In this document: positions 1 to 60,100 of the stretch, piece by piece
Layout of the letters: every line of letters begins with the position of its first letter
How positions within the stretch are numbered: the first letter of the stretch is position 1
Origin: a virus
IMG/VR virus record: IMGVR_UViG_3300019888_000002
Span: 32,001 to 96,000 of that record
DNA length: 64,000 nucleotides
Reading direction: 5' to 3' (one strand)
Notes under the pieces: generated by a model
The model's input: only the letters and a program-made list of their open reading frames with translations
Told to the model about the DNA's origin: nothing
The model's database searches: none
Made by a program: the position numbers and the translations under genes

Positions 1-2290
1 ACTTGGCCTCGTAGACGTGGATCGAGTACTGACCACCGGGCGCGTAGTTGTACTGGGTGTTGCCATCCAAGACTTCCTTGACCCACGGGATCGAAGCCGT
101 CTTGGTGGAGCCATAGTGCTCATCGTCGTCATCGTCGTCGTCATAGTTATAGTGCTCTTCGAGCGAAGCACCTTCGGACTTGCCCATTTCGGCATCGTCG
201 TAGCCGAGCTGAGTCCAATAGGACATACCAGGGAACCGAGTCAGCCCCAACGCCTTGCCCTGATAACCGAACTCGTAGTCCCTGTAAATCTCGTCCCAGT
301 TGTCATCACGTCCGTGTCCGAGGTCCCCTGAAAATCCACCGTCACTGTTGTTGAAATCGTCAACCATCTGCTGGGTGACAACGGCCTGCTTACGGTTCTT
401 GCGTGACTTCTTGGTGGAGTCGGCAGCCTGCTTGCGCTTGGCCGTCATCGACTTGAGCGCCTGCTCGGCGGCGTCCTTGGCCGAAGACGTGTCGGTGGCA
501 ACACCGTGAGCGTAGGTCGAGCCCGAGTACGGGTCCTCGACGTACCAGGCGATTCCTCCACCGACCTGCTCGACCACCTGACCGGACGGACCGACCGGAG
601 GTGTGGCGTTGGGATTCCAGGTGGAGAAACCCTTGGTGAAGCCGTCGTCCACGGTGAACCAGGTGACTGCGGCCGTCTTGCGGCGCTTGGCGAACAAAGC
701 GCCCTGGCCCCCACCGAGAGCCTCGAGTTGCTGCTCAGCCCACATCTTGGCCTCCTCGACCGTGGCGAAAGTTTTCTCTGCGACCGTGCGATCCCATTCG
801 TTGGGGTAGATCGAGCACAGGTGCGGGGTGGGGTCGTCATCGAACCACTGATCGATCCGGGCGAACGGGGCCTCGGTATCGGTATTGAGATTGGTACCGG
901 GAAGGGTGCCGATCGACTCGTCGCCGTTGTCACTCCATTCGAGAGAGGCCGTCTTCTTGCTGGCCCACAGGTGAGCGTTGTCCGGGTCGTTCCACCCGCC
1001 AGCGTCCAAGAACGTATCGGTCACATTCTGATCCCATCCTCGGCTCTGACCGAAATCACGCACATGCTGCGGGGAAGCTGTGCCCGGCAGATCGAGCGAG
1101 CGGAGATGCTCACTCAGCTCGTCCCACTTGCCCTCGTTGTGGTACTGCTCGAACGAGTTGGCGATATGCGGGACGACGAGCGGCTTGTGCAGCGCGGTCC
1201 GGCGAGGAACGGTCATAACAGATTCCTTCTTCTTCGTGTCCGACTCGTCGGCCTTGTCATCGTCATCGTCTGTGTCGTCGCGGGGGTCTTCGGCTTCGTC
1301 GTCCGACGGGTGTTGCACCTCGAGGTTCTTCTTCAGGTCGGGGTCCCTCAGCTCCGGGGGAGACTCCACGAACTGATGGAACTCGGACTCGTCCTCTTCA
1401 TCGCGTAACGTATCGACCCGCTCCGGGGATTCGATCTCCCCATATGCCTTCTTGGAGAGGTTGGCTACCCGCCAGTTCGGGTTGGCCATCTCGAAGGTCC
1501 GGCGATGACTCTCGGAGCAGTAGTCGTAGGCGGCATGAGTGCCGGAGGTGTGAACCCACCGGTCGGTGTCGGACTTCTTGGCCCAGCGCTTACAGCCGGG
1601 AAGGTCACAGAGCACCCGGCCGGGCGCGGCACCGACTCGACGGCTGGCGGCGATCACGTTGGAGGTGAGCGCGGTCTCGTCGGCGGGGTCGAACACATAA
1701 CTCAGTTCGAAGAATCCGATGCCCCGGCATTCTTCGTAGACGAGCTTGCCGTCGATCGTCTGCCCCTTGTGATGAAGCACGTGATCGCACATGTCGAACA
1801 TGTCGGTGGCCGTGTTCCCACACACCGAGCAGATTGTCAGTGCAGCAACGCATCCCATGGACACGGCATCGATGCCACCCTCTTCCAGCTCCTTGGCCAG
1901 CTTCGGGTACTTCTTCGCGCTGACTTCCTGGATGACCTGGATGTACTTGTCGGTGCCGTTCTCCACATACCGAGAACCGATCACCCGGCCACGTGCCTTG
2001 CTGGCGTCGTCGTTGGCATGGTTCACGAACAACGGCTTGCCGAGGAAGGTCTTGTACGCGGCTTTGAGTTCCGAGGACGGGAAGCCGTCGAAGTTCTGGT
2101 TGATCCGCGCCGAAATTGCCCTCGTGACGGTGTAGATATGACCCTCGCGCGGGACGAAGCCGTCGACCAAAGCGGAGTCAGGGTAGCTCTGCCAGGTGGC
2201 GATCAGATCACGAGCGGCCTCGATCGAGGACGCAGCGTGCTTGATACGACCTCGAACGCTGTTGGCCTTCTTCATCGTGTCGACGCTCAA
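1..2290 (-). CDS. Prohead (capsid maturation) protease with long acidic/modular C-terminal extension; 3' end runs off the window
   Basis: Absent from the ORF track because no stop lies in the window. Hand translation from TTG 2290 (SD GAAGGAAGGG; in-frame ATG 2275) gives ...RAISARINQNFDGFPSSELKAAYKTFLGKPLFVNHANDDASKARGRV...DAVSMGC...CSVCGN...CDH...GFFELSYVFDPADETA, typical of assemblin-fold phage proteases of large actinophages. Frame checked open near position 1. Confidence 0.8.
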   Translation of the reverse strand, partial: MSVDTMKKANSVRGRIKHAASSIEAARDLIATWQSYPDSALVDGFVPREGHIYTVTRAISARINQNFDGFPSSELKAAYKTFLGKPLFVNHANDDASKARGRVIGSRYVENGTDKYIQVIQEVSAKKYPKLAKELEEGGIDAVSMGCVAALTICSVCGNTATDMFDMCDHVLHHKGQTIDGKLVYEECRGIGFFELSYVFDPADETALTSNVIAASRRVGAAPGRVLCDLPGCKRWAKKSDTDRWVHTSGTHAAYDYCSESHRRTFEMANPNWRVANLSKKAYGEIESPERVDTLRDEEDESEFHQFVESPPELRDPDLKKNLEVQHPSDDEAEDPRDDTDDDDDKADESDTKKKESVMTVPRRTALHKPLVVPHIANSFEQYHNEGKWDELSEHLRSLDLPGTASPQHVRDFGQSRGWDQNVTDTFLDAGGWNDPDNAHLWASKKTASLEWSDNGDESIGTLPGTNLNTDTEAPFARIDQWFDDDPTPHLCSIYPNEWDRTVAEKTFATVEEAKMWAEQQLEALGGGQGALFAKRRKTAAVTWFTVDDGFTKGFSTWNPNATPPVGPSGQVVEQVGGGIAWYVEDPYSGSTYAHGVATDTSSAKDAAEQALKSMTAKRKQAADSTKKSRKNRKQAVVTQQMVDDFNNSDGGFSGDLGHGRDDNWDEIYRDYEFGYQGKALGLTRFPGMSYWTQLGYDDAEMGKSEGASLEEHYNYDDDDDDDEHYGSTKTASIPWVKEVLDGNTQYNYAPGGQYSIHVYEAK

Positions 2291-15020: not shown

Positions 15021-15215
15021 CTATGAGATCTCGACCAAGGCGAAAGCTGTCCTGGGATCAAGGCCCAGCATGAGGAAGGATTCCTCGGCCTCCTCCCGAG
15101 TCTTGGAATGAGCACAGACGGTACGGATGGCCTGGCGTTCCTGTTCGGTGGTGGTGGTGGCAGGGTCCACCTCTTCGATCTGATCGGCCAAGACACGATA
15201 CGACATTTGTACCAA
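15021..15215 (-). CDS. Small hypothetical protein
   Basis: 64-aa ORF between terminase and 2H gene. Confidence 0.5.
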   Translation of the reverse strand: MVQMSYRVLADQIEEVDPATTTTEQERQAIRTVCAHSKTREEAEESFLMLGLDPRTAFALVEIS

Positions 15216-15272
15216 ACCCTTTCTCCGCTAGGAACTTTCTCTAAGGTAACTCTGCCGCAAGGACTTCGGGGA

Positions 15273-18682: not shown

Positions 18683-19216
18683 CTATTGAGGTGGCTGAGC
18701 GTAGTTCGGCGTGATCTTGAGTCGGGCCACGTACGAAATCGCCGTCTGGATGACCGTCTTCGCGACCAGGATCGCCAACACGCTCCACGCGGCCTTGTTG
18801 AAGAAATCGAAGCCCGTCCCCGACGTCAGCACGAGGCCGAACACCGACAGCAACGCGAACCCGATGTCGATGCCGAGGCCCTGCACGAACGTGCGGAAGC
18901 TCCGGTTCCTGGCCGACGCGATGGTCAGCTCCTTGCCGGTGACCGTGGTCCCGGTGATGTTCGGGACGACGCCGGGAAGCCCCTGTCCGGTCAACTCACC
19001 CATGCCGACCTGCTGCACGTAGCCAGCCACCTGAGCCTGAAGAGCCGGTTGCTGCGCCTTGATCTCGTCGCGTGCCGCCGTGGCGGCCTCCGCGCGGACG
19101 GATTCCCAGAATGAGACCTTGCCCTCGCCGGGTATGTGCTGCCCCGGTGTGTCGGGATTGGCCACACCGATCAGCTCGGGAGGCGGAGAAGGTGTCGAAT
19201 CCTTCGGCGTGCTCAT
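18683..19216 (-). CDS. Holin
   Basis: RNRSFRTFVQGLGIDIGFALL...AWSVLAILVAKTVIQTAISY, a typical actinophage 2-TM holin; directly downstream of the lysins. Confidence 0.7.
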   Translation of the reverse strand: MSTPKDSTPSPPPELIGVANPDTPGQHIPGEGKVSFWESVRAEAATAARDEIKAQQPALQAQVAGYVQQVGMGELTGQGLPGVVPNITGTTVTGKELTIASARNRSFRTFVQGLGIDIGFALLSVFGLVLTSGTGFDFFNKAAWSVLAILVAKTVIQTAISYVARLKITPNYAQPPQ

Positions 19217-20553
19217 TTGGTCATCTCCTTCACTACGGCATCGTGTTCGGCCACCGTGAGCGGAGAACCTTTCTCGGCGGCCTTGCGCAGCAACGCGAGC
19301 ACGATGTTCAACTCACCGCGTGCGGACAGAATGTGGCCGAAGGCGTCGTCGTCCTGTGCCGGGGTGACGGGACGCTTGATCGTGCCCTCGCCCCACACCC
19401 TCAGCCGCTTGGTGGTCTTCCACAGCACCTTCGCGAATGCGCCACGCAGGCTGAGCTTGTCGCCCTGCTCGTTCTCCTGCAACGGCAGACCCGCGCTCGC
19501 CGACAACTCCGAGGCGATGTTCTGGAGAGATTCCTCTGCGGTCATGGTGGTGATTCCTTTCGATGGGGTTGCGTTCTGAGCTGGGGGTGCCACGACGCGA
19601 GGTAACGAACCCCGCACCTGCATGACGTGATAGGGATCGGCGTTGTCTCCCCACTGACTGATCGAATAATGCAGGTTGTCCATCGTGGAGAGCGGGTGAA
19701 AGAAGCCCCCGTAGAGCCGGGGGAACTGCACTCCGGTGGCGAGATCGTGCCGTGGTGCGGTGTAGGCGTTCCCGGTGGGTCCGTCGAGCACTCTGCCGGT
19801 GACCGCGTAGCGAGTGGGCTCGAATACCGAGATGACCCAGTTGCCCTCGATCTTGCGCCAGTGCGGCTCACCGAAAATTCCGGTGATGATGGGTGACGGT
19901 GGCCGTCCCCATTTCCAGTCCCGAGAATCCTTGTCGTAGCCCCAGCCCTCATAGGTGCTCAGGTCACTGAGCGACCCCACCGGAGCCCGCTGAATGAAGA
20001 GGCCATCGGCCAGGTGCCGTCCGTTCGACGTGGACAGGCAGTAGGCGTAGTTGCCGTCCACGATCCACGACTGCATCTGGAAGATGTCGCTGTGCACGAG
20101 GTTGTTGTTCCACAGCTTGTGATCGTCCCAGGTCTCGCCCCGGTCGGCCGAGAAGGCCAGGCCAGCGTAGTTCGTCTCCCAGGTGCCGTGATCCCAGTTG
20201 TTGACGCTCATGTAGCTCATGCAGAAGATGCCGTCGACCACGAACACGTCGGTCGGAATCTTGGTGACCTCGCCCTCGTACCACTTCTGATGCGCGTTCG
20301 GGAGTAGCTCCCTCCCTCCCGCCAGAGCCCGGTCGAAGGTGATACCGGAGTCGAGGTCCGTCGCGGTGGACACCAGACCCACCGGAGAACGCCACCATCC
20401 CGGCCTGCCGACGTTGTCCTCGAACGAGTCGCCGAACAGGGCACCGAACTCGCCATTTCCCATGTCCCACCAGATACCAAGATCGGTACCGCCGAGACCC
20501 AAGGTCTTCGGCCTGACGTCACTGCCCACGAGGGTCTTGATCAGGTCGCTCAT
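19213..20553 (-). CDS. DUF4185 / GH183 endo-D-arabinanase-like protein with C-terminal ~110-aa domain
   Basis: GGTDLGIWWDMGNG..LFGDSF...WRSP...IPTDV...YMSVNNW...W.TNYAGLAFSAD.GETW is the DUF4185 signature. True start is ATG 20553 (ATGA overlap with LysA stop), not 21582. Confidence 0.85.
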   Translation of the reverse strand: MSDLIKTLVGSDVRPKTLGLGGTDLGIWWDMGNGEFGALFGDSFEDNVGRPGWWRSPVGLVSTATDLDSGITFDRALAGGRELLPNAHQKWYEGEVTKIPTDVFVVDGIFCMSYMSVNNWDHGTWETNYAGLAFSADRGETWDDHKLWNNNLVHSDIFQMQSWIVDGNYAYCLSTSNGRHLADGLFIQRAPVGSLSDLSTYEGWGYDKDSRDWKWGRPPSPIITGIFGEPHWRKIEGNWVISVFEPTRYAVTGRVLDGPTGNAYTAPRHDLATGVQFPRLYGGFFHPLSTMDNLHYSISQWGDNADPYHVMQVRGSLPRVVAPPAQNATPSKGITTMTAEESLQNIASELSASAGLPLQENEQGDKLSLRGAFAKVLWKTTKRLRVWGEGTIKRPVTPAQDDDAFGHILSARGELNIVLALLRKAAEKGSPLTVAEHDAVVKEMTK

Positions 20554-22124
20554 GGCAGGAACTGCCTCTCGATCAACTCGACCAATTTCTCCTCGATCGA
20601 AGTCACTGCCGGAGCCGGTGAAGAGGTCGGCGTAGCTCCTGGCGCGGACTGAGCAGGCGTTTCTCCTGGCGTCGGCGGTGCCTGAGCTGGCGCTGCGATA
20701 GATACCGGCGCGGGAGCCAGACTCGGCGCTGCATCGTTGACACCCCACGCCGACAGCCACACATGCAGCGGCATCTTGGAAACATTCATGTCGGTAGGAC
20801 CGAATGGAGCGGTGTCTTCGGAGTCGGTGTACTGATGACCGAATATCGGGTCCGGGCTGTCGGGCTCGTTGTCGGCCCCGTTGTAGGCAGGCACGACGAG
20901 CTTGATGCCGTTGGGCCTTGTTTGCCACAACTCCGCGTTGGAGTTGAAGTTGAGGTATCCCGCCGTCGCCTGTGGGTTCTTGAAATAGTCGTTGATCTTC
21001 GAGATCAGCTCGTTGACCTCCGCGCTCTGGTCGCCGGAGATGCCCCACTTGGCCCCGCCGTCTTCGACGTCGACCATCGCGCACAATTCGGCGAACACCC
21101 CACCTGTTTGCGTGATGACCCCGGTGAACGTGCCGAGGTTGTCGACTCCTGGAACGAAGAAGTGATAGCCGATGACCTTCTGGAGCTTCCCCCTCGATAC
21201 GGCATCGCGTGCCTTCTGCATCTGCTCGACAGCGTGCTCGTCCACGGTATCGCCGATGGAGAGCCGGAACGCGATGACCGGATAGGGGTAGGAATCGTCC
21301 AGGAAGGCGTCCTGATACTGGCTGTAGTCGCCCCACTTGACCACGACCGGCTCGGGGTCCGAGATAACGGAGAGCGGGGCCTTGAGTCGCCAACCGTCCT
21401 TGATGACCGCGTCCCATTCCCACGATCCGACGTGACCGTGCGGTGCCCAGCCCTTGTCGAGCTGAAGCAGAGTCGCGGCCTTCGAGGTGGCACCGTCGTT
21501 CCATTTCTTGGTGACCGGCAGACCGAGAGCCTCCTGCCAGCGGCCCAAGCCATCCTTGGCCGCCTGCGAATCTCCACGCCACTCACCCGAGACGGACTCG
21601 TCGGGACCATCCTGCGGCCCGTAGTAATAACCGAGCGGTAGCGGAAACTCGTTGGGGTCCGCAGCGGCCCAGATGTTGAGGTAGCCACCCTGTAGCTTCG
21701 CGGCGAACGGAGCGATCTGTTCCGCGTTGCCCTGAATCTGGAAGTGCATTTCGTCGGGACGATCCCAATCCCGGCCCCAGAACACCGTGCCCTCGAACAG
21801 TGCGAGACCGACACGAATCTTGTCGATCATCCACTGCGGCATGGTGTATTCCTGCCAGGGCCACTGACTGGAGTTGATGTCCATCGCGGTGCCCGAGAGG
21901 TGGTTGGAATTCCAGACGGTATTCGTCCGACTCCAACCCCATTCGTCGCGCTCACCTTGATCTATCGGTGCGACGTTGCGGTGATACCAGGCTGCGAACC
22001 CCTTGAGAATGGTGGTGACATCACCCTGAAGAATCTCGCAGACAGCATTGGTGCCGGGAATCAGTCCCCGATCCAACACATCGGAATCGCATTGATCCCA
22101 ACCGTTCTCGGTCACAATAGTCAC
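20550..22124 (-). CDS. lysA: Endolysin (Lysin A): M15 peptidase, PG-binding-like linker, GH25 muramidase
   Basis: ENGW...SNHLSGTAMDIN...WG.DW.RPDEMHFQI (M15); GDYSQYQ...GYHFF...MVDVEDGG (GH25). Confidence 0.9.
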   Translation of the reverse strand: MTIVTENGWDQCDSDVLDRGLIPGTNAVCEILQGDVTTILKGFAAWYHRNVAPIDQGERDEWGWSRTNTVWNSNHLSGTAMDINSSQWPWQEYTMPQWMIDKIRVGLALFEGTVFWGRDWDRPDEMHFQIQGNAEQIAPFAAKLQGGYLNIWAAADPNEFPLPLGYYYGPQDGPDESVSGEWRGDSQAAKDGLGRWQEALGLPVTKKWNDGATSKAATLLQLDKGWAPHGHVGSWEWDAVIKDGWRLKAPLSVISDPEPVVVKWGDYSQYQDAFLDDSYPYPVIAFRLSIGDTVDEHAVEQMQKARDAVSRGKLQKVIGYHFFVPGVDNLGTFTGVITQTGGVFAELCAMVDVEDGGAKWGISGDQSAEVNELISKINDYFKNPQATAGYLNFNSNAELWQTRPNGIKLVVPAYNGADNEPDSPDPIFGHQYTDSEDTAPFGPTDMNVSKMPLHVWLSAWGVNDAAPSLAPAPVSIAAPAQAPPTPGETPAQSAPGATPTSSPAPAVTSIEEKLVELIERQFLP

Positions 22125-47314: not shown

Positions 47315-50300
47315 GCCGTGACCCTCCGAAGGCCCTGGTTCCAGCGCAACTCCTCGAGCGCGTCGAGCAGCTTGGCATAGGCCCCGGGCTCGACCGAGAC
47401 GGTAGCCCCCTGCACCCCGATGTATTCGGCTTCCCATCCGCCCATGGACCCGTCGGCCATGGTCTTCCAGACGAACGCCCGGCCGACCGGCTCCGAGTAG
47501 AACGTGATCCCCTCGAAGAAAACGGCGTGGGAACTGACGATCCGATAGTCCTTGACCTCACCGGCCTGCTCAGCGTCGAGAATTTGGTCGATCATCTCCT
47601 GGGCTGCCGCGAGATCGGCGACATAGAGCTTGACGAACTCCTTCCCACCGTCCTCGGAGAGATACTGGAGAACGAAGCTGTGCAGGGTGTCATGCGTCCC
47701 CTTGCGCCCATAACTGGCGAAGAAACGATCGTCTCGAGTGTGATAGACGCCAGGTAAGCGTTCACTTTCTCGCAGTTCTGTCATGAGGGGGTTCCTTTGT
47801 ATCGGCGAAGACTACTTGTCCCCCTACTGTACCATGAATGAACCAGTTGTCTAGCCCAATCAGGTGGCCTCGAGATGCCGGGAGAACCTGTCCTTCTCCT
47901 GCGAGGCGTACAGGCACTCGGACACGATGTGGATGCCACAGACATCGGTGACGAAGGTCAGCCCCTCGTAGTGGTACTTGGCCTGCCGAGTGCACTGCTT
48001 CTCGGTGGTGGTTGCTGCCCGACACCTGCGTTCCACCGAGATCAGAGCCACCCAGGGCAAACCCAGGTATTCCGCTTCCTTCTCACTGGCCACCCGGGGA
48101 CTCCTCACCCTGCGACGACATGCCGAGAGCCGTATAGAGTTCGGCGGCGAACGCACGAGACACCGGATGCGGGGTACCGGTCTCCGAATTGAGCGCGTCG
48201 TGCCAATCGTTGGCCAACTTCAGGGCCTTGGTGTACGCGACGACGAGCTTGTTCAGCTCCGGCAGCCGGGCGAGCACTATCTTCTTCGGGTCGAAACTCA
48301 CCGTTTCGTAGGGCTCACCCAGGCTCCGATGCCCGGACACGATGATCATGTCCGGGTCGACCGGGTGTCCGGCCTCCTCGTGCAACGCCATCAGCTCGGC
48401 CGTGGGAACCACGGTGTACGGGGCCGGGGGCCTCTGCCGGGGTTCAGCCACCGGATACCTCCTCGTTCTGGGGCCAGGTATCGGACGAGACCGTCGGCTG
48501 CCCCACGATCCTGGGATAGAGCACCGGAACCGCATTGGCGACCATGTCCGTCATGGCCCACCGCACCCGATCGGTAGCGTGCGCCCCGGCGTTCTCGGCG
48601 GCCTCCAAGTTCGGAGCCTCGAGCACCAGATCGACCCGGATCTCCACCTCGAACCGTGCCATCAGAGGTCGGTCGTCACCAACGACGACCCGGCGAAGTA
48701 CCGGAAACACGCCTGCTGCTCGTGCATCGCGTGCATGGTATAGGGCAACAGGGTCTCGTAGCCGTACCGTTCCAACACGGCCTTCGGATACCCGGTGCTC
48801 ACCTCACTCGTGTTCTTGTTGACGACCAGCGACGTCAGCAACGGCTCACCGTGAGCCTTGTTCAACCGGACGACCTCCATCAGCCTGTCCGCGATCGTGT
48901 ACCGCCAGTTCGGTCGTTGCAACTCCCCCATCCGGACACTGACCGCCGCGTCCAGTGCGCTGTAACTGATCAGCTCCCGGCGCGCGGCCTGCTCGATCAG
49001 AATGATCCGGGCGTACTCGGCCCAGAGCAGGAAACTGCGGACACTCATTTCTCGTCCTGTTCGGTCTCGGCGTCGAGAGAGTGGATGTCAACAGTCGCGG
49101 TCCCGAGAGCGGCAGACAACTCGTCGGCGAACCTCCGATGCACCGCAGAGGGGTCCTTGGTTCTCGTGTCCAGCGTGGTGCGCCACATCTCGGCGAGCAC
49201 GGTGGCCCTTTCCACGGCACCCCGCAGGTCGGCCAGCTCCTCGTTCTTGACGACGGTGTACTTGGCCACGTCCAGAATGTCGAACGGGGCCAGGATCGGG
49301 TCGACAGCCGTGTCGGCGGTGTCCGCCACGGCCTGTTCGCTCATTTCTCGATCCCCTTGGTCGCGGCAGCCTTGAGCTGACCTGCGCCCGCCATGTCGAT
49401 GATCGTGTCGATTCGGCTGCGGACACCTATCGCGTCGGCCAGCTCCTTCTCCTTGCGATCGATCTCCTTCTGCGACGTCTCGCGCAGGGTGTTCATGTGC
49501 GAAGTGATCTCGTCGGGAGTGGCGTGATAGAGAGCCACCTCGGAGTCTCCGGCAAAGACCTGAAGCTGCACCCTGACCGAAGAGTAGTTCTCCTCGAATT
49601 CGATGGCCGTGATTGCGGCCTCCTCGCCGTTGTGCATGATGCCGGTGACCACACCCAGATAGAGCTTGTAATCGGTCTCGTAGTTGTTCTTGTGCAGTCG
49701 CTTGTAGACATCACCCTCGGCGAGATTGGTGATAGTGACGATGTTGGCGGTGGCCTGAACGAGAGTCTTGGTCTGCATGGTGGGGGGTTCCTTCACGGTT
49801 GTGGGGGTTTGTACTCATAGCGTACCAGTAGATAACTTCAATTACTCAGTCGACCCAGCCCCTTTTAATTCGCAGCTCGTCCAGACTCAGGCCCGGGAAG
49901 CTGGTCCATCCGGCATCCGGGGTCACCCTGCGGACCAGCTCGTACTCGTTCCACGGCTGTACCGATTTGATTTCACCGGCCCGGTCCAGCACCTCCCGGA
50001 AGGTGTGGAAACCTCCCAGGACCAGGCCCGGGATCGTGGTCTCGCTGGCATGAGCGAGCAGGATTCCGTACTCGTGGGCCGGTGTTCTCGACATCGGGGG
50101 AGGTTCCTTTCATGGGGTCGAACACGGCATCGGAATGGTCATGTCCTCGCATAGAGACCGGATTCGGCCGGGATCACCGTGACGACATAATCGTGACGAC
50201 GTGACGGATGGAGGTGGTCGTAGAGCAGACACCCCACGACCACTCCCACCAAGGCGGACACGAGAAACAGGACACAGAGTTGGACGACGTACTTCGTCCT

Positions 50301-53300
50301 CATCCGGGGCATCAGATCATTCTCGATGCTCGTCATTCCTGCCTTCCGGAAACTCGACGGCGAAATGCACGTGCTCGTGGTTCGGGTCGATCCCGAGCTT
50401 CGCGCTGAGATGACGGGGCTCGAAGTAGGTGACGTCGGCCACGGTGGGATCGTATTCGTATCGCTCGCACAGCAACACCCACTTGAGCGCATTCGACTCC
50501 AACGGGATCAGCTCGTCCCGGCCGTCGAACCCGGACCCGGTGTCACCGCTCATGCTCGTTCCTCGTATCGGCCGACGACGGCCCAACGGTTGGCCACGTC
50601 CAAGGCCCGGGCCTTGGACGTGAGCCGGTGACGTTCGAAGAGCACCGTGCCGCCGACCCCGATCACCTCGAGCGACCACAGCATGTCGTTCTCGTGTTTG
50701 CGCACGATGTAGCGCTCGGGACGATACATCCTCGGGTCCAGCGCCTGATAGTGCCCGGATTCGACCCGATGGAACGAGAGCGCCAACGGCTTGGCCACCC
50801 GGGGCGGCCGCTGCACATGATGCAGCACCGAGAACGGGGCCAGGTCGATCAGTTGAGAGGTGGACCAGACGGTCGGGCTGTCGTCGGCGTAGTGCCAACC
50901 GTTGTCCCGTAACTGAGCGACATTGCCCTCACGATCGAGAACAGCTGAGCCGAGTCCGAGCAGATCGAGGTCCTCGACGCCTTCCGAAGAAATGGTCATG
51001 GTGGGGGTTCCTTACGTTAGATGTCCCTAGACTGTACCACAGGTACAGTTCACGTCAGAATGCCTTCTTGTCGTAGCCCTCAGGCTCGCCCTGTCCGTCC
51101 CACGCAAAGGCTGCGGCGGTGGCAGCAAGCAGTGCGGTGAACATCGTGCGCGGGGTGCCTTCATTGTTCGTGCCGTGCCCGAAGTAACAGAACCCGTGCT
51201 CGGTGAGCATGTGTGGCGAATCGTCAGTGGGACGATGGCTGGTGAGCACCACCCGGTAGTTGTAGAGCATCTTGAGCACGTCGACACAATGCGTCTCATC
51301 GACCCGCTTGACGCACCAACCACCCAGAATCGGAGTGAGTTCGTCCATCAGTATCGCCGCGCGGTCTTGAGGCTGTCTTTCACGGTCATGTCGCGTACGT
51401 AATAGGTGTCGCCGAGCCACGAGCCCCGGCGAGCATCCACCCACTGATTGGCGGTCTGCTCTGTGGAGAACAACTCCACCACCCGCACCCCGTCGTCCCC
51501 GGAGTGCGAATCGGGGTCGTCACATCCGCCGTCATGTTGAGTCACGGCCCATACCTTCATCGGTCCCGCGCCGACACCCTCTCGTTCCTCGGCGTTCGCA
51601 CCGGTATCCGGATCGACAAAGGCAATACTCGACCCGATGAACTGCACCTGTGTGCCCTCCGGGTAGCGAGACAGGATCTCGATCCATTCCGTAGTGCTCT
51701 TCATCAGTTCGCCTCCAGCTTCGCCTCGAAGAACTCGCGGTTCATCTCGATGAGGTCGAGGGTGAGCTGGCGGAAGCGCTCGGCGTCCATGTCCCGATCC
51801 TGCTGGTACATCACTCCGAGAATCTCGGTGTCGACGCACGCCTTCTGGTGGTCGAGGGTGAGCTTCCCCCACGCCATTCCCCAACGGTCCTCGGCGTAGC
51901 CGGAAGCAATGCCGTAGAGGCGCTCGACGTTGGTCTGTGGCTTCTTCTTGGTCATCGGGACTCTCCTCGTGGGGGTTTCATCTGCTCCTGTACCTAGACT
52001 GTACCACAGGTATTGCCCCCGTCAAACCCCCACGGGTCACCGGAGCGACGTGTCCTCGGCCTTCACTCGTACAGCTCCCTCGTACCCCGCCGCTGATTCT
52101 CGATCAGACGCGCCTGCCGCTGCCAGTGCCGCTCCCGGAAACGCTTACGCACCCAATACGTCTCGGCCCCGGCCATGTTGTCCTCGGCCGCGATGGTCCA
52201 CACCCGTTCGCAAACAGAACACACCCAGATATCGCCGGGCTCCCCGTTGGGAAAACCGTCCTCCCGGCCGGGCACATCGCACCGATGCTGCTCACCCAGC
52301 TCCTTGGCCCGATACACCCAGGTCACCATCGGCTCCGATCGAAGAAATGCAACAGATCGTAGATCAACAGATCGAGCAGGCTCGAATTCATCGGTACGGA
52401 TTCTCGGGTTCGCTCCGGTCCCGGTCGAGCATGTCCTTGACGTCGGCGTCCTTGGTGTCGTACCCCTCGCGCCACGCCTCGGCGAGCACGGCCATCAGTG
52501 CCTCCCCGGAGATCAGGATGTTGTGTTTGTGCGACGGACCCGGGAACTCCTCGGGCTTCAGATGCGAGAACTGCTCCATCACCCGGTGCACATGTTCACA
52601 GGCCGGACAGAACGACATCCCGGTCTCGTTGGTGATTCGGCCCATCACGTCGTCCACAGGAGTTGCGCGGGAAGGTAACGGCGCATCGTGGATGCGGCCA
52701 ATGGTGCGGTTTCGTAGCTGCACCACAGACTGTCGCGCTTCTGATGCATGTCTCGGTCCCGGTCGATAACGACAGCAAGATCCGGCAGTGCATTCAACTG
52801 CTCGACGGTGGTGATGGTGCAGGCATCTCGGATTGCTTGCGCGATATGCCCTGCGAAGTCCAGTGCCTGTGCGCCGTGGCCTGCCGATGACTTCCAGCCA
52901 CACGAGCAATCGCGACGATGAGAGTGCGGATAGAGAATGGGGTTGTACAGGTGTGCTGCGATGACGCTCGTCAGATCGCTCACGACGTCACCTCACGATA
53001 CGGATTGACGATATCGTCGTTCGAACATGCTGCCAATACGCCTTCGTCCCATGCTTCGGCGCAACGCGCCTCTGCCAACATTGCGCGCTGATGCAGTGAG
53101 ATGAGCCGCGCCGCGTCCTCGTCACCTCGGGCTGCCGCCTCTTCGAAACGTCGCTTCCACTCGTCCGCTCGGTCGCGTTCGATCCCGATCTCTGTAAACA
53201 ACTGCGGCACTGTCATGTGTGCGATCTGCTCGTCGGTGGACCGATTACTCGTGTGCGGCATGAAAGCCTCCGCAATTATGGAAGTATCGTTCCTCGTCCA

Positions 53301-53720
53301 ACTGCTCCTGTAGACGATCTGCTCGATCTCGTTCGGCGACAGCAAGGTTGCGCAGTTGCAGCATCGGCACGCGGTAGTCACCCTCGGGGTGAGTGCATCC
53401 CATCGGTAGACCACCGTCGCAGAGACCACAGACCGCGAGCCACGGATCGAACTCGGAAAGCTGCTCGTCCGTGGTCCGAGGCCGCTCACCGGCATCGTGG
53501 GTCATCAGTCCACCTGAGTGTTCCGGTCGTCGGAGCCCTGGTACTCCCGCAGAATGTCGTCGTCGGAATAGATGTCGGCCATCCGCATGGACGACCCATC
53601 CGGCCCCGCAGCCTCCCGTTCCACCAACCCCCGCTCGTCGTCCAGCACATCGTCCAGGATGTGATCCTGCACGTACGAACTCGGTGACGGGGTCGACCCC
53701 CTACCCTCCGGACCGATCAT
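47311..53720 (-). other. Array of ~20 short hypothetical early genes
   Basis: Coupled ORFs such as 47311-47784, 48083-48451, 48662-49048, 49045-49344, 49341-49778, 49846-50094, 50550-50999, 51704-51955, 52063-52329, 52645-52983; motif promoters at 47829, 49811, 51034, 51990. Confidence 0.65.
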
Positions 53721-54022
53721 CGGAACAGGTCCGGCTCTTCGAAATACCCGCTCCACGGTTCCACCGTCGGATCGAAACCCTCCGGCAGACCCTCCACCGC
53801 GATCGAAGCGTTGGACCACATGGCAGCCTGCTGAAGCGCGGTGAGCGCCAGATTCCGGTGTCGCCCGGGCCGGGTCATGTCCATCACGGTGACGGCCATG
53901 GCCTTGTACGAACGCCGGATCGTCTCGTGTGCCTTGACGCTGAGCGCGTTCGGCGGATGGTAATCGAACCGGTTGAGCACCTCGACCACCTCCTTGGCGC
54001 TGAACTCCTCCTCATTCGTCAC
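53717..54022 (-). CDS. Acb2/Tad1-like helical-hairpin protein (putative nucleotide-signal sponge)
   Basis: NRFDYHPP...HETIR...A......PGRHRNLALTALQQAAMWSNASIA resembles the Tad1/Acb2-family C-terminal helix (RE.A.ALT..EEA.MW.N). Confidence 0.6.
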   Translation of the reverse strand: MTNEEEFSAKEVVEVLNRFDYHPPNALSVKAHETIRRSYKAMAVTVMDMTRPGRHRNLALTALQQAAMWSNASIAVEGLPEGFDPTVEPWSGYFEEPDLFR

Positions 54023-55574
54023 CGTCGTCCCCCTCTTCGTCGTCGGTCTCGACCTCGGGTCCCCCGAGCAGAGCGTTACGGTGCTCCTCGGCCGTGGCGA
54101 GACGCTCCAACGCCTCGGCGATCCGGACCGCTGTCTCTTGGGTCATTTCGAATCCTTCTGCTTTGTGCACGGTTGTTGGTAGCCGTCGTCTTCGCATCCG
54201 CAATCCCGGCACCTGCGTCCGCGACCGAGCGTGGTCTTGCTCCACGGTTCCCAGTCGTGATCGCCCGAACCTTTGATCCGAGGAAGGCGTCCGTCGATAG
54301 TGAGGTGCTCGGTCACGGTGTCTTCACGTCCCCGCGAAAGGACGTGCGCCGTTCTTCGTCGGTGCTCAGTTCCCGCACGGTATAGGGATCGTGACCTGGT
54401 CCGTGATTGGGCGCAAAGGGCCTGAAATCGTCATCGAGCACGAACCACTCGCACGCCTCGTGCGTCTCCACCTCGATCACCCGGTCGAAGAGCCAGCGCC
54501 GCCACGACTGCTCGTTGTAGCTTGCGGCCGGAACGATGAAAAAGTGCAGCACACCCCGATTGATCTCGTGATGATAGGTGTCCGGCCCCACCACCTGAAT
54601 CGTGAGGGTCAAACCCTCGGACCCTTGTCCCCGATCGATCTCTCGAAGGTTGAAACACCAGTTGGCCTTGTACGTGAGCCGGGACACCAGGTCCGCCAGC
54701 GCCGTGGGGTACGGCGCGCTCTGAGTCATCGGCTGCTCCGGCATCACCGTTCTCCTTCGGGCCGAATGTCGAAGGTCCGCTGAATCCAGCTGCCCCCCTC
54801 GTGGTCGACGGCCATCAACGCGACACCCTCCGAACTCGGCTGGAAGCCCGGAGTCAGAGACTGGGTGGAATGCCGCATCGCCTGCCGCAACGATCGCAGA
54901 TGATTGTCACAGGCCGTGTCGATGAGCGTCTCGAGATCACCCACCGGCATAGTCCCCTTCCGTTCCTCCTCGAGACTCTGGTGCAGCAGCAACGACAGCA
55001 CGGCCCGGATCAGGTCCCGCCGAGTGGACTCGGGACTCGGATAGTGCGGGAACGGACTCTTGCTCATCGGATCATCTTCCTCTCGACCCCCGACGGAAAC
55101 GACCCCCGGAACCCCCGTGCGGCCGCCCCAAACGGCCGCCCGAGCCTGTTCGGCGTCGGCGCTCACATTTCCCCTGCCCGGCCGGTGTTGCGGACGCAGG
55201 AAAGCACTCCGGCGATCACCAGACCCATGTAGACCCCGACGGCGAGACCCAGCACGATCGACACGAACCTCACGGGCGTATCTGACACAACTGGTCCACC
55301 CCGAAATGACTCCAGTACCAGACCCCCACCCCGAAACCGACGGTCCCGAAGCTCAGCATCCCGACGATGCTCACGAAGAGCAGGTTCTTCGCCATCACGA
55401 CCAGAGACGAATCACCGCTCATCGGATACTCATCTCGTCGGAGATCTCATAGACGTGTGCGACGACATTGCCCGCGTAGTCGCTGGTGTCCTCGTACCAG
55501 GTATGGCCGGTGGGATCGACATGGTGTTGCCCGTCGCAGTCCTCCGCGATACAGAACAGAGCCTTGCATCTCAT
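54012..55574 (-). other. Short hypothetical genes, including two tiny membrane proteins (~55163-55421)
   Basis: 54313-54747, 54744-55068; hand-translated MRFVSIVLGLAVGVYMGLVIAGVL and MSGDSSLVVMAKNLLFVSIVGMLSF. Confidence 0.5.
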
Positions 55575-55608
55575 ACCGCTCTCCTCAGGTCGATTGCCGA
55601 AAATGGGG

Positions 55609-55710
55609 TGGACCAGGGAGGAATCGAACCTCCGACCACGGATAACACCGACTCTTGCCGAGTCCGCTGCGCAGCATGTGCCCCTTGCTCTACCACTGAG
55701 CTACCGGCCC
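55609..55710 (-). ncRNA. tRNA-like RNA with expanded, branched anticodon domain
   Basis: GGGCCGG TA GCTC AGTGGTA GAGC ... GGTC GGAGG TTCGATT CCTCC CTGGTCC A: 7-bp acceptor stem, canonical D arm and T arm, but ~49 nt between D arm and variable loop instead of ~18; intergenic. Confidence 0.8.
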
Positions 55711-55714
55711 CTTG

Positions 55715-56901
55715 TCATTCGACCGAACCGATCTCCAGGTCGTGCGCCATCCACCCGTTGTCGTGCACCAGATCCGACAACCGGCTCTCGGCGTCGTCCC
55801 GGGTGTCGAGACCCGCCTCGATCTCGTCCCCGGTCACGGCGTTGAAGATGACATACTCCTCGCCCGGCATCGTCAGAACCTCCGCTCGCATCGCCAGGGA
55901 CCGATCAGCCAGGTGTGGCCCCGCCAATAGATGCGCAGCCGCCTGTTCGATGTCGCCGGGTGCCCGTCGAACCACGTCGTGGTGGCGTGGTGGACGCTGA
56001 TCAGACGTTTGTCCAGCGCCGTGAAGCCCAACGAGTCCCGCACATGAACGACGTTCATCCGATCCTCTCTTGGGTCGCCTCGAGCACCTGCACATTGGTC
56101 TTCCCGAACTCCGTCTCCAGCCCCCGCTGCACCCGTTCGAGGAACCCGCTGCTCGAGATCGGATCGAGATCGGGGGGCACCCGCAACGCCACGGTGAGCG
56201 TGAGGAAGCGCCGCTCCCAGGGTGCGGAATCCTCCCGGGCACAGACCTCGGTCCTGGTCGAGGTGCTCACGACGTACCGCGACTGCGGGTTGCCGACGGG
56301 ATGCAACTCGACCGAGATCATCGAGCCGTCCATCCCCAGGTAAGGCCGCGACACCCCGAAGATCAAGCACTCCTCCCCGTTGTTACGGATGACGTGCCCG
56401 GGCCGAAGATCGGCCACGGGCATCTTGTCCCAGAGTGCCCGGTCGGTCATCCGTCCTCCGGATCGTCGCTGTAGGGGTGCTCGGCACCCTCTTCCATCAC
56501 CGAATCCCAGTACCCCAGTGCGTCGGGGTCGATCTCGTCATTGTCCTCGAAATCGAAGTTCGGGTCCATCCGGTGAAAGCGGTCCATCGTGGTGTCGATC
56601 ATGGGGGTTCCTTCCGTCGGTTGCTGCTACACCTATGGTACAGCATCGGTACAGGAAGTCAATCCCCTCTCATCAGGGATCGCTGCTCGTGCATCTTCTC
56701 GAGCCGTCGGTTCATCTCGGCATCGACCTCCGCGACATCACGGCCGAGCTGCTTGCGCCGGGCGTCCAGCTCCGTCAGACTCATGGCCTCGAGGTTCACG
56801 GGCGGAACCAGCTCGTTCACCCTTTTCACCCGCGCCGATATTTGTTCTCGAAGATGTCGTTCTTGATGGGGTAGAAACCGTGTGAATCCTTCGCCACCCA
56901 T
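55715..56901 (-). other. Short hypothetical genes (55715-~55873, 56055-56450, 56659-~56830)
   Basis: Coupled ORFs; motif promoter at 56638-56652 (TTGACT-16-TACCAT). Confidence 0.5.
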
Positions 56902-57131
56902 TCTCCGACCTCCAGGGGTAACCAGGACTCGTTCGCATCGACATAGAGGTTCGCCGTACGTCCGACGACCCCTTCACCGGGAGAAATGACCGCCCTCGAC
57001 ACAAACTTCGGTCCGCACCACTCCAGCACGGCGTCGGTACTGTCGGGCTCCCCCGTCCACTGCATGGCCACGATCTCGGTGGGAACGGAGACGTAGGTCT
57101 GCGGTTCCGTCGACGCATTCCGAAAGCTCAT
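56826..57131 (-). CDS. Widespread phage protein of the P..I.A.QW...FYP.K.DIF family (possible Acb4-like sponge)
   Basis: VPTEIVAMQWTG...GEWVAKDSHGFYPIKNDIFENKY. Confidence 0.45.
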   Translation of the reverse strand: MSFRNASTEPQTYVSVPTEIVAMQWTGEPDSTDAVLEWCGPKFVSRAVISPGEGVVGRTANLYVDANESWLPLEVGEWVAKDSHGFYPIKNDIFENKYRRG

Positions 57132-60100
57132 GACGAAGCCCCCTCTTCGTCCGCATGGTTGCAGCCGGGAGAGAGCCACCCCGGGAATATCTTGCTCCAC
57201 AGGGCCATCAGATCTCGGAGCGGCACGATGACGTCGATATCCTCGTTCTCGTTGATCACCCTGATCAGCTCGGGCTCCACGTTGTGATAGGCCAACCGGA
57301 CCCGGCGACGTTCCCCGTCGAGATAGACCACTTCGTCGGGGGTGTGCGGATCGAGAGTGTCGTACTCCATCCCGTCCACGATCATCCTGGGAGAAACAGG
57401 CATCACAGCGCCCACAGCCGGGTCAGCAGCAGGTAATAGATCAGGTTCCCGAGTTTGCGGATCATCACTCACCATCCTGTCCCCAATCGTCGCTGTTGTC
57501 CGGACTGACTCAGGGCCAGCTGCTCCCGCAGGTACCTGATCTCCTCGACCAGAGGCTGCTCCCCGGTCACGGCGGTGTACGAACGGTGCGGGCCGGGATG
57601 GGCGTAGGTCTGCGAACACGTGACATCCGAACAGTTCCCGGTGCGGCCGTTGTCCTTGGTGAGCCCGGAGGGCATCGTCGTCTCCTTCATCGGGCATACA
57701 CCTCCGGATGTGCCAGCCACTCCGGCAGAACGGTGGGAGCGTCCTCGGGGCTCAGCTTCATGTCGTGGAACTTGGCCTGCTTGAAGACGTTCTCCCGGTC
57801 GTACATCACGATCAGCCGGATCATGCCCTTCCCGAAACTGTCGTAGGTCGGCCCGGACACTCGTTGCCAACCCTTGAGCCGGGCCTCCTTGGCCACGGCG
57901 GCACGACCCAGCTCGATCCTCTTCATGGCTTCATCCTTGGCTTCATCCACCTTCGCATCGGGTCTCTGTTCTCCGGGATCACATAGGGGTTGCTGGCCTG
58001 CTTCCCACCCTGGGGCTCGGTCCAGTTGACCTTCGGGAAATCATCGATACAGGCGTCGTAGCCGTTGTTCCAGGCTTGGTAGAGCGGATCGAGCCTCTCC
58101 CAGAGTCCGCGCTCCTTGGCCTCCAGAATCGATCCGATGATCTGCCGGGAGATCAGGCCGATTCCCAGCAGAACGAGACACAGGAGGATGACCACCGAAA
58201 GCGTGGACACCATATCGATCGCCCACCGGCTCAGCATGTGTCGCCGCTCTCTCGTAATTCCACCGGAGAGCCTTCAACCCGGCTCCAGCCCGTGTGGTCG
58301 AACAACCACACCCCGAAGTCCTGGGTACGGTGCGGGACGAAAGACGGGTCGACGTCCTCGGTCGGGAGCACCAGGGTGGGTTCGTCCTCGAGCGGTTCGG
58401 GTTCGAGGTCCTGTTTGAGCGGCACCACGAAATGACCGTGCCGAGTGCTGCGCTGAGGTTTGTGCCCCACCGGCAGACAGCACCTCCACCCGGGAACATC
58501 GGTAAATCCACACGTCTCGGCCGGACCGTCGACCGACTTCACCTTCTTCAAGTGCCTGCCCCTCTTCTCGATGGTGGCGAAGACCCGGCCACAGGAACAA
58601 TGCCAGCCGTACTTGGTCCGGGTCCCCGGAGTGTGCTCAACCATCCTCGAGTCCGTCACGGTCCATCAGATATGCAGCAGCCAGCGCACGAGGCTGACCG
58701 CCGCTCCGAGCAGCAGCAGTACGGCATGTGGGTCTATGGGGTCTCTCATCACGGCTCCTCGTGTTGTTTCGTCGCAGCTTCAACGGTATGCCGAATTGCG
58801 TTGCTCAGAGCGTCCACAGCGGCCTCGATACCGGCGTGAAAAGTGGTGTGTGTCCCGGTGTTCGCAACCAAGGCAGAACAGCGATGGCACACCCAGAGCC
58901 CATTCAGGGCGGTGTAGTCATCCGACAGCGAGTACGCCAGCCCGAAATAATGGTTCGTCTGGATGTCCGCCTGACCACGATTATGTCCAGCGGCAAGAAC
59001 GCACCGATGACCGTTGTAGGTCGCACCACATTGCCGCTCTCGGCTCGACTGTGCCGAGTCCGGGGGTGGTGTCATCTCGCTGCGAGGCACGGTCGCCGAG
59101 GGGTAGCCACCCGTGACCTCCCGGCTCATGTCTATCCGGCCCGCGTCTGTCAGGCACGGATCTGTCAAGCGCGTCCAGCCCGCATGGTTGAACAGGTAGA
59201 CGCCGTAGCTGGAGGGATTCTCGAGTTGACTCGGGTCCGTGGTGTCGGAGTCGGTGTCGAGCCGACGGCAGAGATCCCGCCACTTCTGACCGTCCGACAG
59301 CACCTCCTCACCGCTGTTCGGAGAATTCATCGTTCATCCCTCCATGCATCTGCATACCCAACGACTGTCGATCAGCGTCCTACAGCCACCGCACCACCGG
59401 CACACGTCGGTGATCAGCTTCATCCGAGCCTCTTCCAGCAGTAGTTGCATCGCCTGCGAACGAACCCGGAGTACCCGATACGCCTCGTGGAGCGGTGCCA
59501 GCCCAGTCGGCACAGAAGCGGAACCTTGCATGGGGCAGGACCGTCGAAGTTCAGCTCAGTCCCGAGCCGATGTCTCATCAGCGCACTGCCCTCGCGCACC
59601 GCACGTGGAAGATGGAACCCGCAGCAGGATGGTTGTCGGCCAACATCCTGGGGAACGGTGAGCCGATGTATCAGCACGTCCTTGTCGGTGAGCTGTGCAG
59701 CCACCAGGGCCACCCCCATAGGACCGAACTCGTCGCCCAGCACCCGCAGCATCCATGACAGCCGGTGGTCGATGCCCGGTAAGCGCGAGCGCTCTATTTC
59801 CTTGTTCATGCGCACTCGCACGGCCTCGGCGTCGTACCGCTTCTCGGTCATGGCTACGGAAGGATGAGCTTGCTCTTAGGGTCACCCAGGGTGCCGTCGG
59901 CGCGCAGTGTGCCCTCCTTGCCGTCGGCCGCACCACTCTGAATCTCACGGGACATCTGCTCGTGATCGATGGTGTAGTCCTTGGGGTCGATGCGGGCCTC
60001 GATGGCGATCGTCGGCAAGAAGTACAGGGTGTCCGAGTTCGGGTCCCCGTCCACATCCACATCCTTCCAATAGACCTTGGCAAGCAGGCCCAGAGCGGCG

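Follow-up and report, generated by a model that had tools for sequence, protein, structure and literature searches.

The virus genome IMGVR_UViG_3300019888_000002 carries a tRNA-derived gene whose tRNA-shaped RNA cannot decode codons: the acceptor, D and T parts of a tRNA are intact, and a 48-nt domain stands in the place of the 17-nt anticodon arm. The reading slightly favoured over a pseudogene is that the gene encodes a functional non-decoding tRNA mimic, which is put forward tentatively, at somewhat less than an even chance. Positions given below refer to the window (the whole stretch of DNA analysed, 64,000 nucleotides corresponding to positions 32,001 to 96,000 of the record) unless otherwise stated.

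The tRNA body and its expanded anticodon domain

The gene and its parts are the following:

55609..55710, minus strand: whole tRNA-shaped gene, from position 1 (55710) to A73 (55609), 102 nt (RF00005)
55704..55710, minus strand: 5' strand of the acceptor stem, GGGCCGG, 7/7 pairs with 55610-55616
55687..55701, minus strand: D arm GCUC-AGUGGUA-GAGC, with G18G19 (sequence and RF00005 match)
55638..55685, minus strand: expanded 48-nt "anticodon" domain replacing the 17-nt arm (RF00005 alignment, deletion models and folding)
55644..55674, minus strand: 31-nt stretch CUGCGCAGCGGACUCGGCAAGAGUCGGUGUU, called as an intron at 37/38 by ARAGORN in intron mode
55650..55664, minus strand: sole robust hairpin of the insert, GACUC-GGCAA-GAGUC (pair probabilities 0.6-0.9)
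55617..55633, minus strand: T arm GGAGG-UUCGAUU-CCUCC (RF00005 match and pairing)
55609..55616, minus strand: 3' strand of the acceptor stem, CUGGUCC, and discriminator A73 (pairing)
55604..55608, minus strand: 3' trailer CCCCA, with no encoded CCA directly 3' of A73

On the minus strand, positions 55710-55609 match the Rfam tRNA model (RF00005) from end to end (model positions 1-71) with 46.2 bits, the gathering score of this family being 29, and the gene has 41 nt where the model has 11. The sequence reads, as it had been quoted in the first-pass annotation, GGGCCGG-UA-GCUC-AGUGGUA-GAGC-A, then 48 nt, and then GGUC-GGAGG-UUCGAUU-CCUCC-CUGGUCC-A. The acceptor stem is paired at 7/7 positions (G3.U70 and G6.U67 included), the D stem at 4/4 and the T stem at 5/5, and the core nucleotides U8, A14, G18G19, U54U55C56 and A58 of the T loop, and G15/C48 (the Levitt pair) are present, so that the tRNA-perfect acceptor, D and T parts and the intact elbow described in that annotation are borne out by both the score and the complete pairing of the stems. 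The gene also contains, in its sequence, the alanine identity set (G1-C72, G2-C71, G3.U70 and A73). Default ARAGORN called no gene in the window or in the whole genome. This gene is the sole tRNA-type match in the complete genome, in agreement with the earlier remark that it stands alone, outside any tRNA cluster, and no working tRNA genes were found in the 131 kb. Contigs assembled from two further runs contain the same sequence letter for letter (100% identical), with no population variation at the locus, and because these runs assembled it identically the insertion is not an assembly artefact.

Several departures from a normal tRNA are grouped in the anticodon arm: A33, G37, a G28.G42 mismatch and the insertion itself. 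The remaining 56 nt of the gene are free of disruptive change. The approximately 31 extra nucleotides that had been noticed in this arm agree with the excess over the Rfam model and with the 31-nt insert delimited by ARAGORN. The absence of a 7-nt anticodon loop was likewise upheld when all single-deletion models of the arm were enumerated: none of them yields such a loop with U33 and none restores a canonical arm, and a 5-bp anticodon stem with a 7-nt loop containing U33 and a purine at position 37 was not found in the domain. The 31-nt insert has no second copy in the genome and, being unique, was ruled out as a repeated or mobile element.

It had also been suggested that the inserted sequence folds as a stem plus two hairpins. 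The GACUC/GAGUC hairpin of that proposal is robust, but the three-way fold is no better than chance. In comparison with dinucleotide shuffles, neither the whole RNA (z = -0.12) nor its 53-nt central domain (z = -0.10) shows extra folding stability, and the proposed stem with two hairpins evaluates at -9.7 kcal/mol against -15.7 for the minimum free energy structure. A related three-way fold, with the outer CAC/GUG stem shifted by one register, is among the suboptimal structures (-13.0) only if the variable loop is kept unpaired, and in the ensemble constrained in this way the pairs specified earlier have a probability of about 8%. A branched fold of the inserted domain is thus not supported by these structure predictions.

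The domain contains scraps that resemble anticodon loops, CACAUG on its 5' side and CGG-UGUUAU-CCG on its 3' side, the latter being similar to the CCGG-CUGUUAA-CCGG arm of tRNA-Asn(GUU). In a genome scan, tRNA-Asn(GUU) and tRNA-Lys(UUU) genes had most of the 5' half of the gene, CCGGUAGCUCAGUGGUAGAGC, in common with it, and one Caulobacter tRNA-Lys has this entire half from position 1; the half is thus a common D-arm half of the Asn/Lys type. The loop-like scraps would fit scrambling of an arm as well as they would fit design.

The phage, the surroundings of the gene and the search for relatives

The 131,157-bp virus record has direct terminal repeats and nearly all of its genes are on the minus strand. 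It encodes a bacterial DNA polymerase III alpha subunit, RecA, a DnaB-type helicase and a Toprim primase, together with a baseplate J protein, an SLT lysozyme domain and a 789-aa DUF4185 protein (19213-21582, minus strand, 226 bits) that agrees with a mycobacterial-type cell wall in the host. A structural protein is 67% identical to that of Rhodococcus phage Finch, 66% to those of the Gordonia phages Stormageddon and RedWattleHog and about 59% to those of cluster C mycobacteriophages. Because of these bacterial-type genes and structural-protein relatives, the virus is classified, from its gene content, as a lytic myovirus of a Mycobacteriales-type bacterium, and a host of this type would have no tRNA splicing endonuclease. 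No match to TROVE/Ro60 (PF05731), no RtcB ligase and no CCA-adding enzyme were found in the complete genome, which rules out a phage-encoded RNA repair or Ro system, and ARAGORN in tmRNA mode called no tmRNA in the window or in the genome.

The immediate surroundings of the gene contain these features:

55715..55897, minus strand: upstream small ORF of about 60 aa, of no family, with 4 nt between its TGA and tRNA position 1
55419..55574, minus strand: downstream 51-aa ORF, with GAGGAG at 55581-55586 and no homologue in the searches
56635..56662, minus strand: nearest upstream promoter-like site, TTGACT-16-TACCAT, about 0.9 kb from the gene

The gene lies within an early array of small ORFs on the same strand and has no promoter or terminator of its own, no terminator-like site having been found in 54800-57000. 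The distance of 4 nt to the upstream stop codon, given in the first-pass annotation for a gene beginning at 55711, holds for a start at 55710 and not for 55711, which includes one extra G; on the other side, the downstream ORF starts 34 nt past A73, behind its GAGGAG. Since the gene is part of a polycistronic early transcript, a free RNA would need to be excised from it. A 101-aa ORF located 1.6 kb downstream on the same strand (53717-54022, minus strand) has an Acb2/Tad1 hairpin domain (PF24729, 50.3 bits; also phrog_1454), which belongs to a family of phage anti-defence sponges. This ORF is likely to encode a cyclic-nucleotide sponge acting against CBASS- or Thoeris-type defence, judging from its domain, and, given the family to which the domain belongs, the tRNA-like gene may lie in an anti-defence neighbourhood.

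The locus is a singleton among the phage, viral-contig, metagenome and protein collections searched. No homologue was obtained by blastn against phages with a 321-nt query, nor in viral contigs when they were searched with the exact 3' half, with the junction pattern or with the flanking proteins. The flanking ORFs match no protein family, and their proteins gave only self-matches in a collection of 5.8 billion proteins. A pattern scan of metagenomes gave no relative either, its matches being intron-bearing tRNAs of archaea and fungi or chance hits. The check by BLAST across phages that had been proposed therefore found no homologue of the locus, although at low stringency it did find similarity confined to the T arm and the 3' acceptor end. 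As a separate observation, the first pattern scan found tRNA-Tyr(GUA) genes interrupted after position 37 by short introns of eukaryotic style in four viral contigs (L002, L003, L014 and L015), two of which are giant-virus MAGs.

The relatives of the phage differ from it in their tRNA genes. Finch has no tRNA gene, and a single ordinary tRNA-Arg(CCU) is present in each of the phages Stormageddon and RedWattleHog. The closest uncultured relative, G001 (a 103.6-kb contig with 74% marker-protein identity, syntenic almost throughout), has a single canonical tRNA-Met(CAU) at 15156-15230 (L163 1501-1575), in the replication module, between homologues of genes found at 114.2-115.8 kb of the present genome, which has no tRNA there. 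G001 has no detectable counterpart of the 10-kb block of small ORFs that occupies 81.8-91.8 kb of the present genome (about 49800-59800 of the window) and carries about 25 kb of unrelated sequence at the equivalent place, indicating that this block is a hypervariable early region.

Possible roles of the RNA and alternative explanations

Several observations favour a functional mimic that does not decode. The body scores 46.2 bits in spite of the missing arm, with its stems paired and its core nucleotides present, and the several departures of the arm are accompanied by none that disrupts the other 56 nt, which is the pattern expected from selection on the body and not on decoding. Only 4 nt separate the gene from the upstream ORF and 34 nt from the downstream one, a tight packing within a compact lytic genome, and the Acb2/Tad1-type anti-defence gene lies close by on the same strand. 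There are also precedents for elements of this class, i.e., the arm-altered tRNA shapes kept in Microbacterium phages and the published case of the tmRNA of phage DS6A, which is reduced to the TLD (PMC4131195, PMC11915505), both of which are considered in the next section. The same kind of body also bears an expanded arm in an independent GC-rich viral contig (L032, IMGVR_UViG_3300042934_000727; 70 kb, GC 0.68), whose element at 2062-2163 (minus strand) has a tRNA-Ile-type body with A3-U70 and an anticodon arm enlarged by about 25 nt, is reported by ARAGORN as "tRNA-???(acag)" or with odd intron solutions, and belongs to a contig unrelated to this phage beyond one weak protein match of 28% identity. 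Against the mimic, the locus is a singleton and neither the RNA nor its flanking ORFs have a homologue in the collections searched, the inserted domain gives no thermodynamic signal of structure and it contains the loop-like scraps. The G3.U70 pair is weak evidence alone because 2/7 of the acceptor pairs are G.U, and the expanded element of L032 has A3-U70 instead.

The main competitor is a recently disabled tRNA (of the Met/Ile2-CAU or Asn-GUU type), whose arm would have suffered an insertion or the replacement of a segment and which would persist without function until it is deleted. This is a serious possibility, although it is considered less probable than the mimic. The relatives carry one canonical tRNA each (with the exception of Finch, which has none) and the present genome has no working one, so the gene could be that tRNA, broken. 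In addition, the locus is a singleton within some 10 kb of hypervariable sequence that has no counterpart in the closest syntenic relative, the lack of a structure signal and the leftover scraps in the insert are compatible with decay, and a single complex replacement could explain all the defects of the arm at once. On the other hand, deleting the insert restores no canonical arm, and therefore more than a simple insertion happened in it, while no disruptive change is seen in the remaining 56 nt. Phage genomes shed useless DNA fast, so a functionless remnant would be expected to be lost quickly, and the Microbacterium phages show that tRNA shapes without a normal arm are retained across diverged phages.

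If the gene does produce a mimic, host RNase P would cut at 55710 and free the 5' end of the RNA from the polycistronic transcript, and 3' trimming to A73 would be followed by CCA addition, releasing an RNA of about 102-105 nt; this excision would also sever the early mRNA at the gene. The released RNA could be read by enzymes that recognise only the acceptor/T-arm part and the elbow. AlaRS reads the G1-C72, G2-C71, G3.U70 and A73 set and does not need the anticodon, and since the RNA carries this set, AlaRS may alanylate it through G3.U70 and A73. Such an RNA would most likely serve to bind or titrate a host factor acting on tRNA ends, the candidates being AlaRS, the CCA enzyme, a toxin or defence enzyme that modifies acceptor ends, or SmpB, as proposed for DS6A. 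A more specific version, which is regarded as unlikely, is that the RNA is charged with alanine through G3.U70 and A73 and disarms a host system that reads the acceptor end, being one of a broad and undescribed group of anticodon-less mimics of actinophages; candidate targets of a mimic charged in this way would be trans-translation through SmpB, an acceptor-end-modifying toxin or abortive-infection enzyme, and AlaRS itself. The decoy for anticodon nucleases that had been offered in the first-pass annotation is unlikely, and is the least likely version of a mimic, because the RNA has no anticodon loop for such an enzyme to recognise.

The gene could also be a pure mRNA punctuation signal, a site for RNase P and RNase Z that splits the early transcript and whose excised RNA has no job. 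It is embedded in a polycistron, between a stop codon 4 nt away and the next start at 34 nt, with no terminator and a single promoter-like site 0.9 kb upstream. Moreover, RNase P requires just the acceptor/T-arm part, and one of the Microbacterium phages (BirdInFrench) is indeed down to an acceptor/T minihelix. Nevertheless, the full D arm, the elbow formed by G18G19 and the T loop, and the Levitt pair have been kept here when a minihelix would suffice, and no second element of this kind was found in a 131-kb genome that is coded almost entirely on one strand, which makes punctuation as the only function quite improbable.

Still less probable, to the point of being very doubtful, is a true intron-containing tRNA-Met/Ile2(CAU) from which the 31 nt would be removed and the exons rejoined to a 73-nt decoding tRNA. 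This interpretation is invited by ARAGORN, whose intron mode reports a tRNA-Met(CAU) at 55607-55710 with a 31-nt intron exactly at the canonical 37/38 position. Furthermore, the uncultured 595-kb phage LR756511 has a tRNA(CAU) (L158 101-193, 54.4 bits) with 21 extra nt (hairpin CGGGUU-UAUCA-AACCCG) immediately upstream of a UUCAUAA loop that is intact. However, the ARAGORN solution, which is also the best of the single-deletion models, would leave the loop CACAUGA, which has A33 and G37, closed by a 4/5 stem that contains a G.G mismatch. A scan for bulge-helix-bulge (BHB) motifs gave one strict hBHBh' match (defined by both splice sites lying in 3-nt bulges around a 4-bp helix), which is incompatible with the cloverleaf, and the relaxed BHB-like pairing that can be drawn at the arm (G31.U, C32-G, A33-U and C34-G) has a 1-bp inner helix and leaves a 5-nt loop. 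To our knowledge, bacteria have no protein-spliced tRNA introns, and archaeal-type splicing is excluded because the host is bacterial; RtcB is also absent from the phage genome. An archaeal virus with a BHB intron was ruled out by the bacterial replication and lysis genes, the actinophage relatives and the failed BHB scan. A group I intron was discarded as well, as a group I ribozyme core takes about 200 nt or more and 31 nt is too short; no group I match was obtained at E values up to 10 and no other intron family matched. There is thus no clean intron in the gene and no known bacterial route to splice it.

A functional RNA would be further evidence that phages put the tRNA shape to uses other than decoding and that genes of this kind escape standard tRNA finders and annotations, as default ARAGORN was blank here and most of the Microbacterium analogues are unannotated. 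If it is only a broken gene, it serves as a warning that the intron mode of ARAGORN can report a plausible "tRNA-Met with intron" in a bacterial-phage setting in which it could not be spliced.

Comparison with known tRNA-like elements

The gene shares with the ordinary tRNAs of related phages (the tRNA-Met(CAU) of G001 and the tRNA-Arg(CCU) of the Gordonia phages) the cloverleaf body and the core nucleotides, and it is likewise the single tRNA-type gene of its genome and lies between small ORFs. It differs from them in lacking the 5-bp stem and 7-nt loop with U33, its 48-nt domain replacing the 17-nt arm, and it occupies a different genomic place from that of the ordinary tRNA of G001. Archaeal and eukaryal pre-tRNAs with an intron at 37/38 are similar in that the extra sequence can be placed at that position, but this phage has a bacterial host, its gene lacks a usable BHB motif and splicing would give a non-canonical product.

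Cluster C mycobacteriophages, which are distant relatives of this phage, encode Ro60 and YrlA tRNA mimics (PMC4201824), which raises the idea, also present in the first-pass annotation, of a Y-RNA-like scaffold for a Ro60-type protein. YrlA and the other Y RNAs are, like this RNA, tRNA mimics with an elbow made by D and T arms, and occur in relatives of the phage group. However, YrlA is permuted, ends on its "anticodon" side and is encoded beside Ro60, whereas this gene is not permuted, ends at the acceptor stem, has no TROVE/Ro60 gene in its genome and does not match YrlA even at E = 10, tRNA being the only Rfam family reported, so that a Y-RNA-like scaffold has hardly any chance of being correct.

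The closest analogues in general design are found in Microbacterium phages and were reached by low-stringency BLAST. They match the RF00005 model with 41-54 bits, lie in one syntenic slot after the SSB gene, and in none of the five phages of the series is the anticodon arm normal:

Marcie (L027 557-630): 6-nt anticodon loop (Marcie type)
Fizzles (L028 560-634): closed stem with a tetraloop
SallyK (L170 133-254): anticodon domain of about 59 nt
SadLad (L171 39-150): anticodon domain of 47 nt
BirdInFrench (L172): only the acceptor/T minihelix remains

The anticodon domains of this series are 5, 13, 47 and about 59-60 nt long. Two-sided changes are seen at acceptor pair 5:68 (G-C/A-U) and at T-stem pairs 51:63 and 52:62. 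The elements of Marcie, Kelcole and Fregley are annotated as "tRNA-OTHER" or "tRNA-Tyr", and those of Fizzles, SallyK, SadLad and BirdInFrench have no annotation. As in the present gene, the acceptor and T arms are intact, the anticodon domain is non-canonical or expanded and the element sits in a tight intergenic slot of an operon; the GGAGG/CCUCC T stem and the G1-C72, G2-C71, G3.U70 and A73 set are shared too, with G3.U70 in four of the five and A73 in all five. In contrast, the Microbacterium slot follows SSB, the inserted domains have no sequence in common, and these phages are siphoviruses of another host family. The BLAST similarity of the series to the present gene covers the T arm and the 3' acceptor end only and never the insert, and neither a shared slot nor a shared insert sequence that would indicate common descent was found, so that these are elements of the same kind and not demonstrably of the same lineage. 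As an observation apart, the domain of SadLad (L171, about 70-100) can be read by eye as GCA GAC GAC AGC GGA UCA GUC CUC AGC UGA, i.e., A-D-D-S-G-S-V-L-S-stop, which begins like an actinobacterial tmRNA tag and does not have the usual LAA end; chance could account for it.

The remaining comparison is with tmRNA. The RNA is not a TLD: its complete D stem (4 bp) and loop are features that tmRNA lacks, tmRNA finders do not detect the gene (the ARAGORN tmRNA search was negative) and tRNA is the best Rfam match within its clan. Nevertheless, the tmRNA gene of phage DS6A has been described as "little more than the TLD", a molecule of this type inhibiting tmRNA, perhaps by titrating SmpB (PMC4131195, PMC11915505). 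DS6A is also a phage of a Mycobacterium-type host, and its TLD-only tmRNA resembles the RNA described here in having G3.U70 with A73 (present in this gene at the level of sequence), a T arm and no anticodon; as in the TLD of tmRNA, the extension of the present RNA lies in the position of the anticodon stem.
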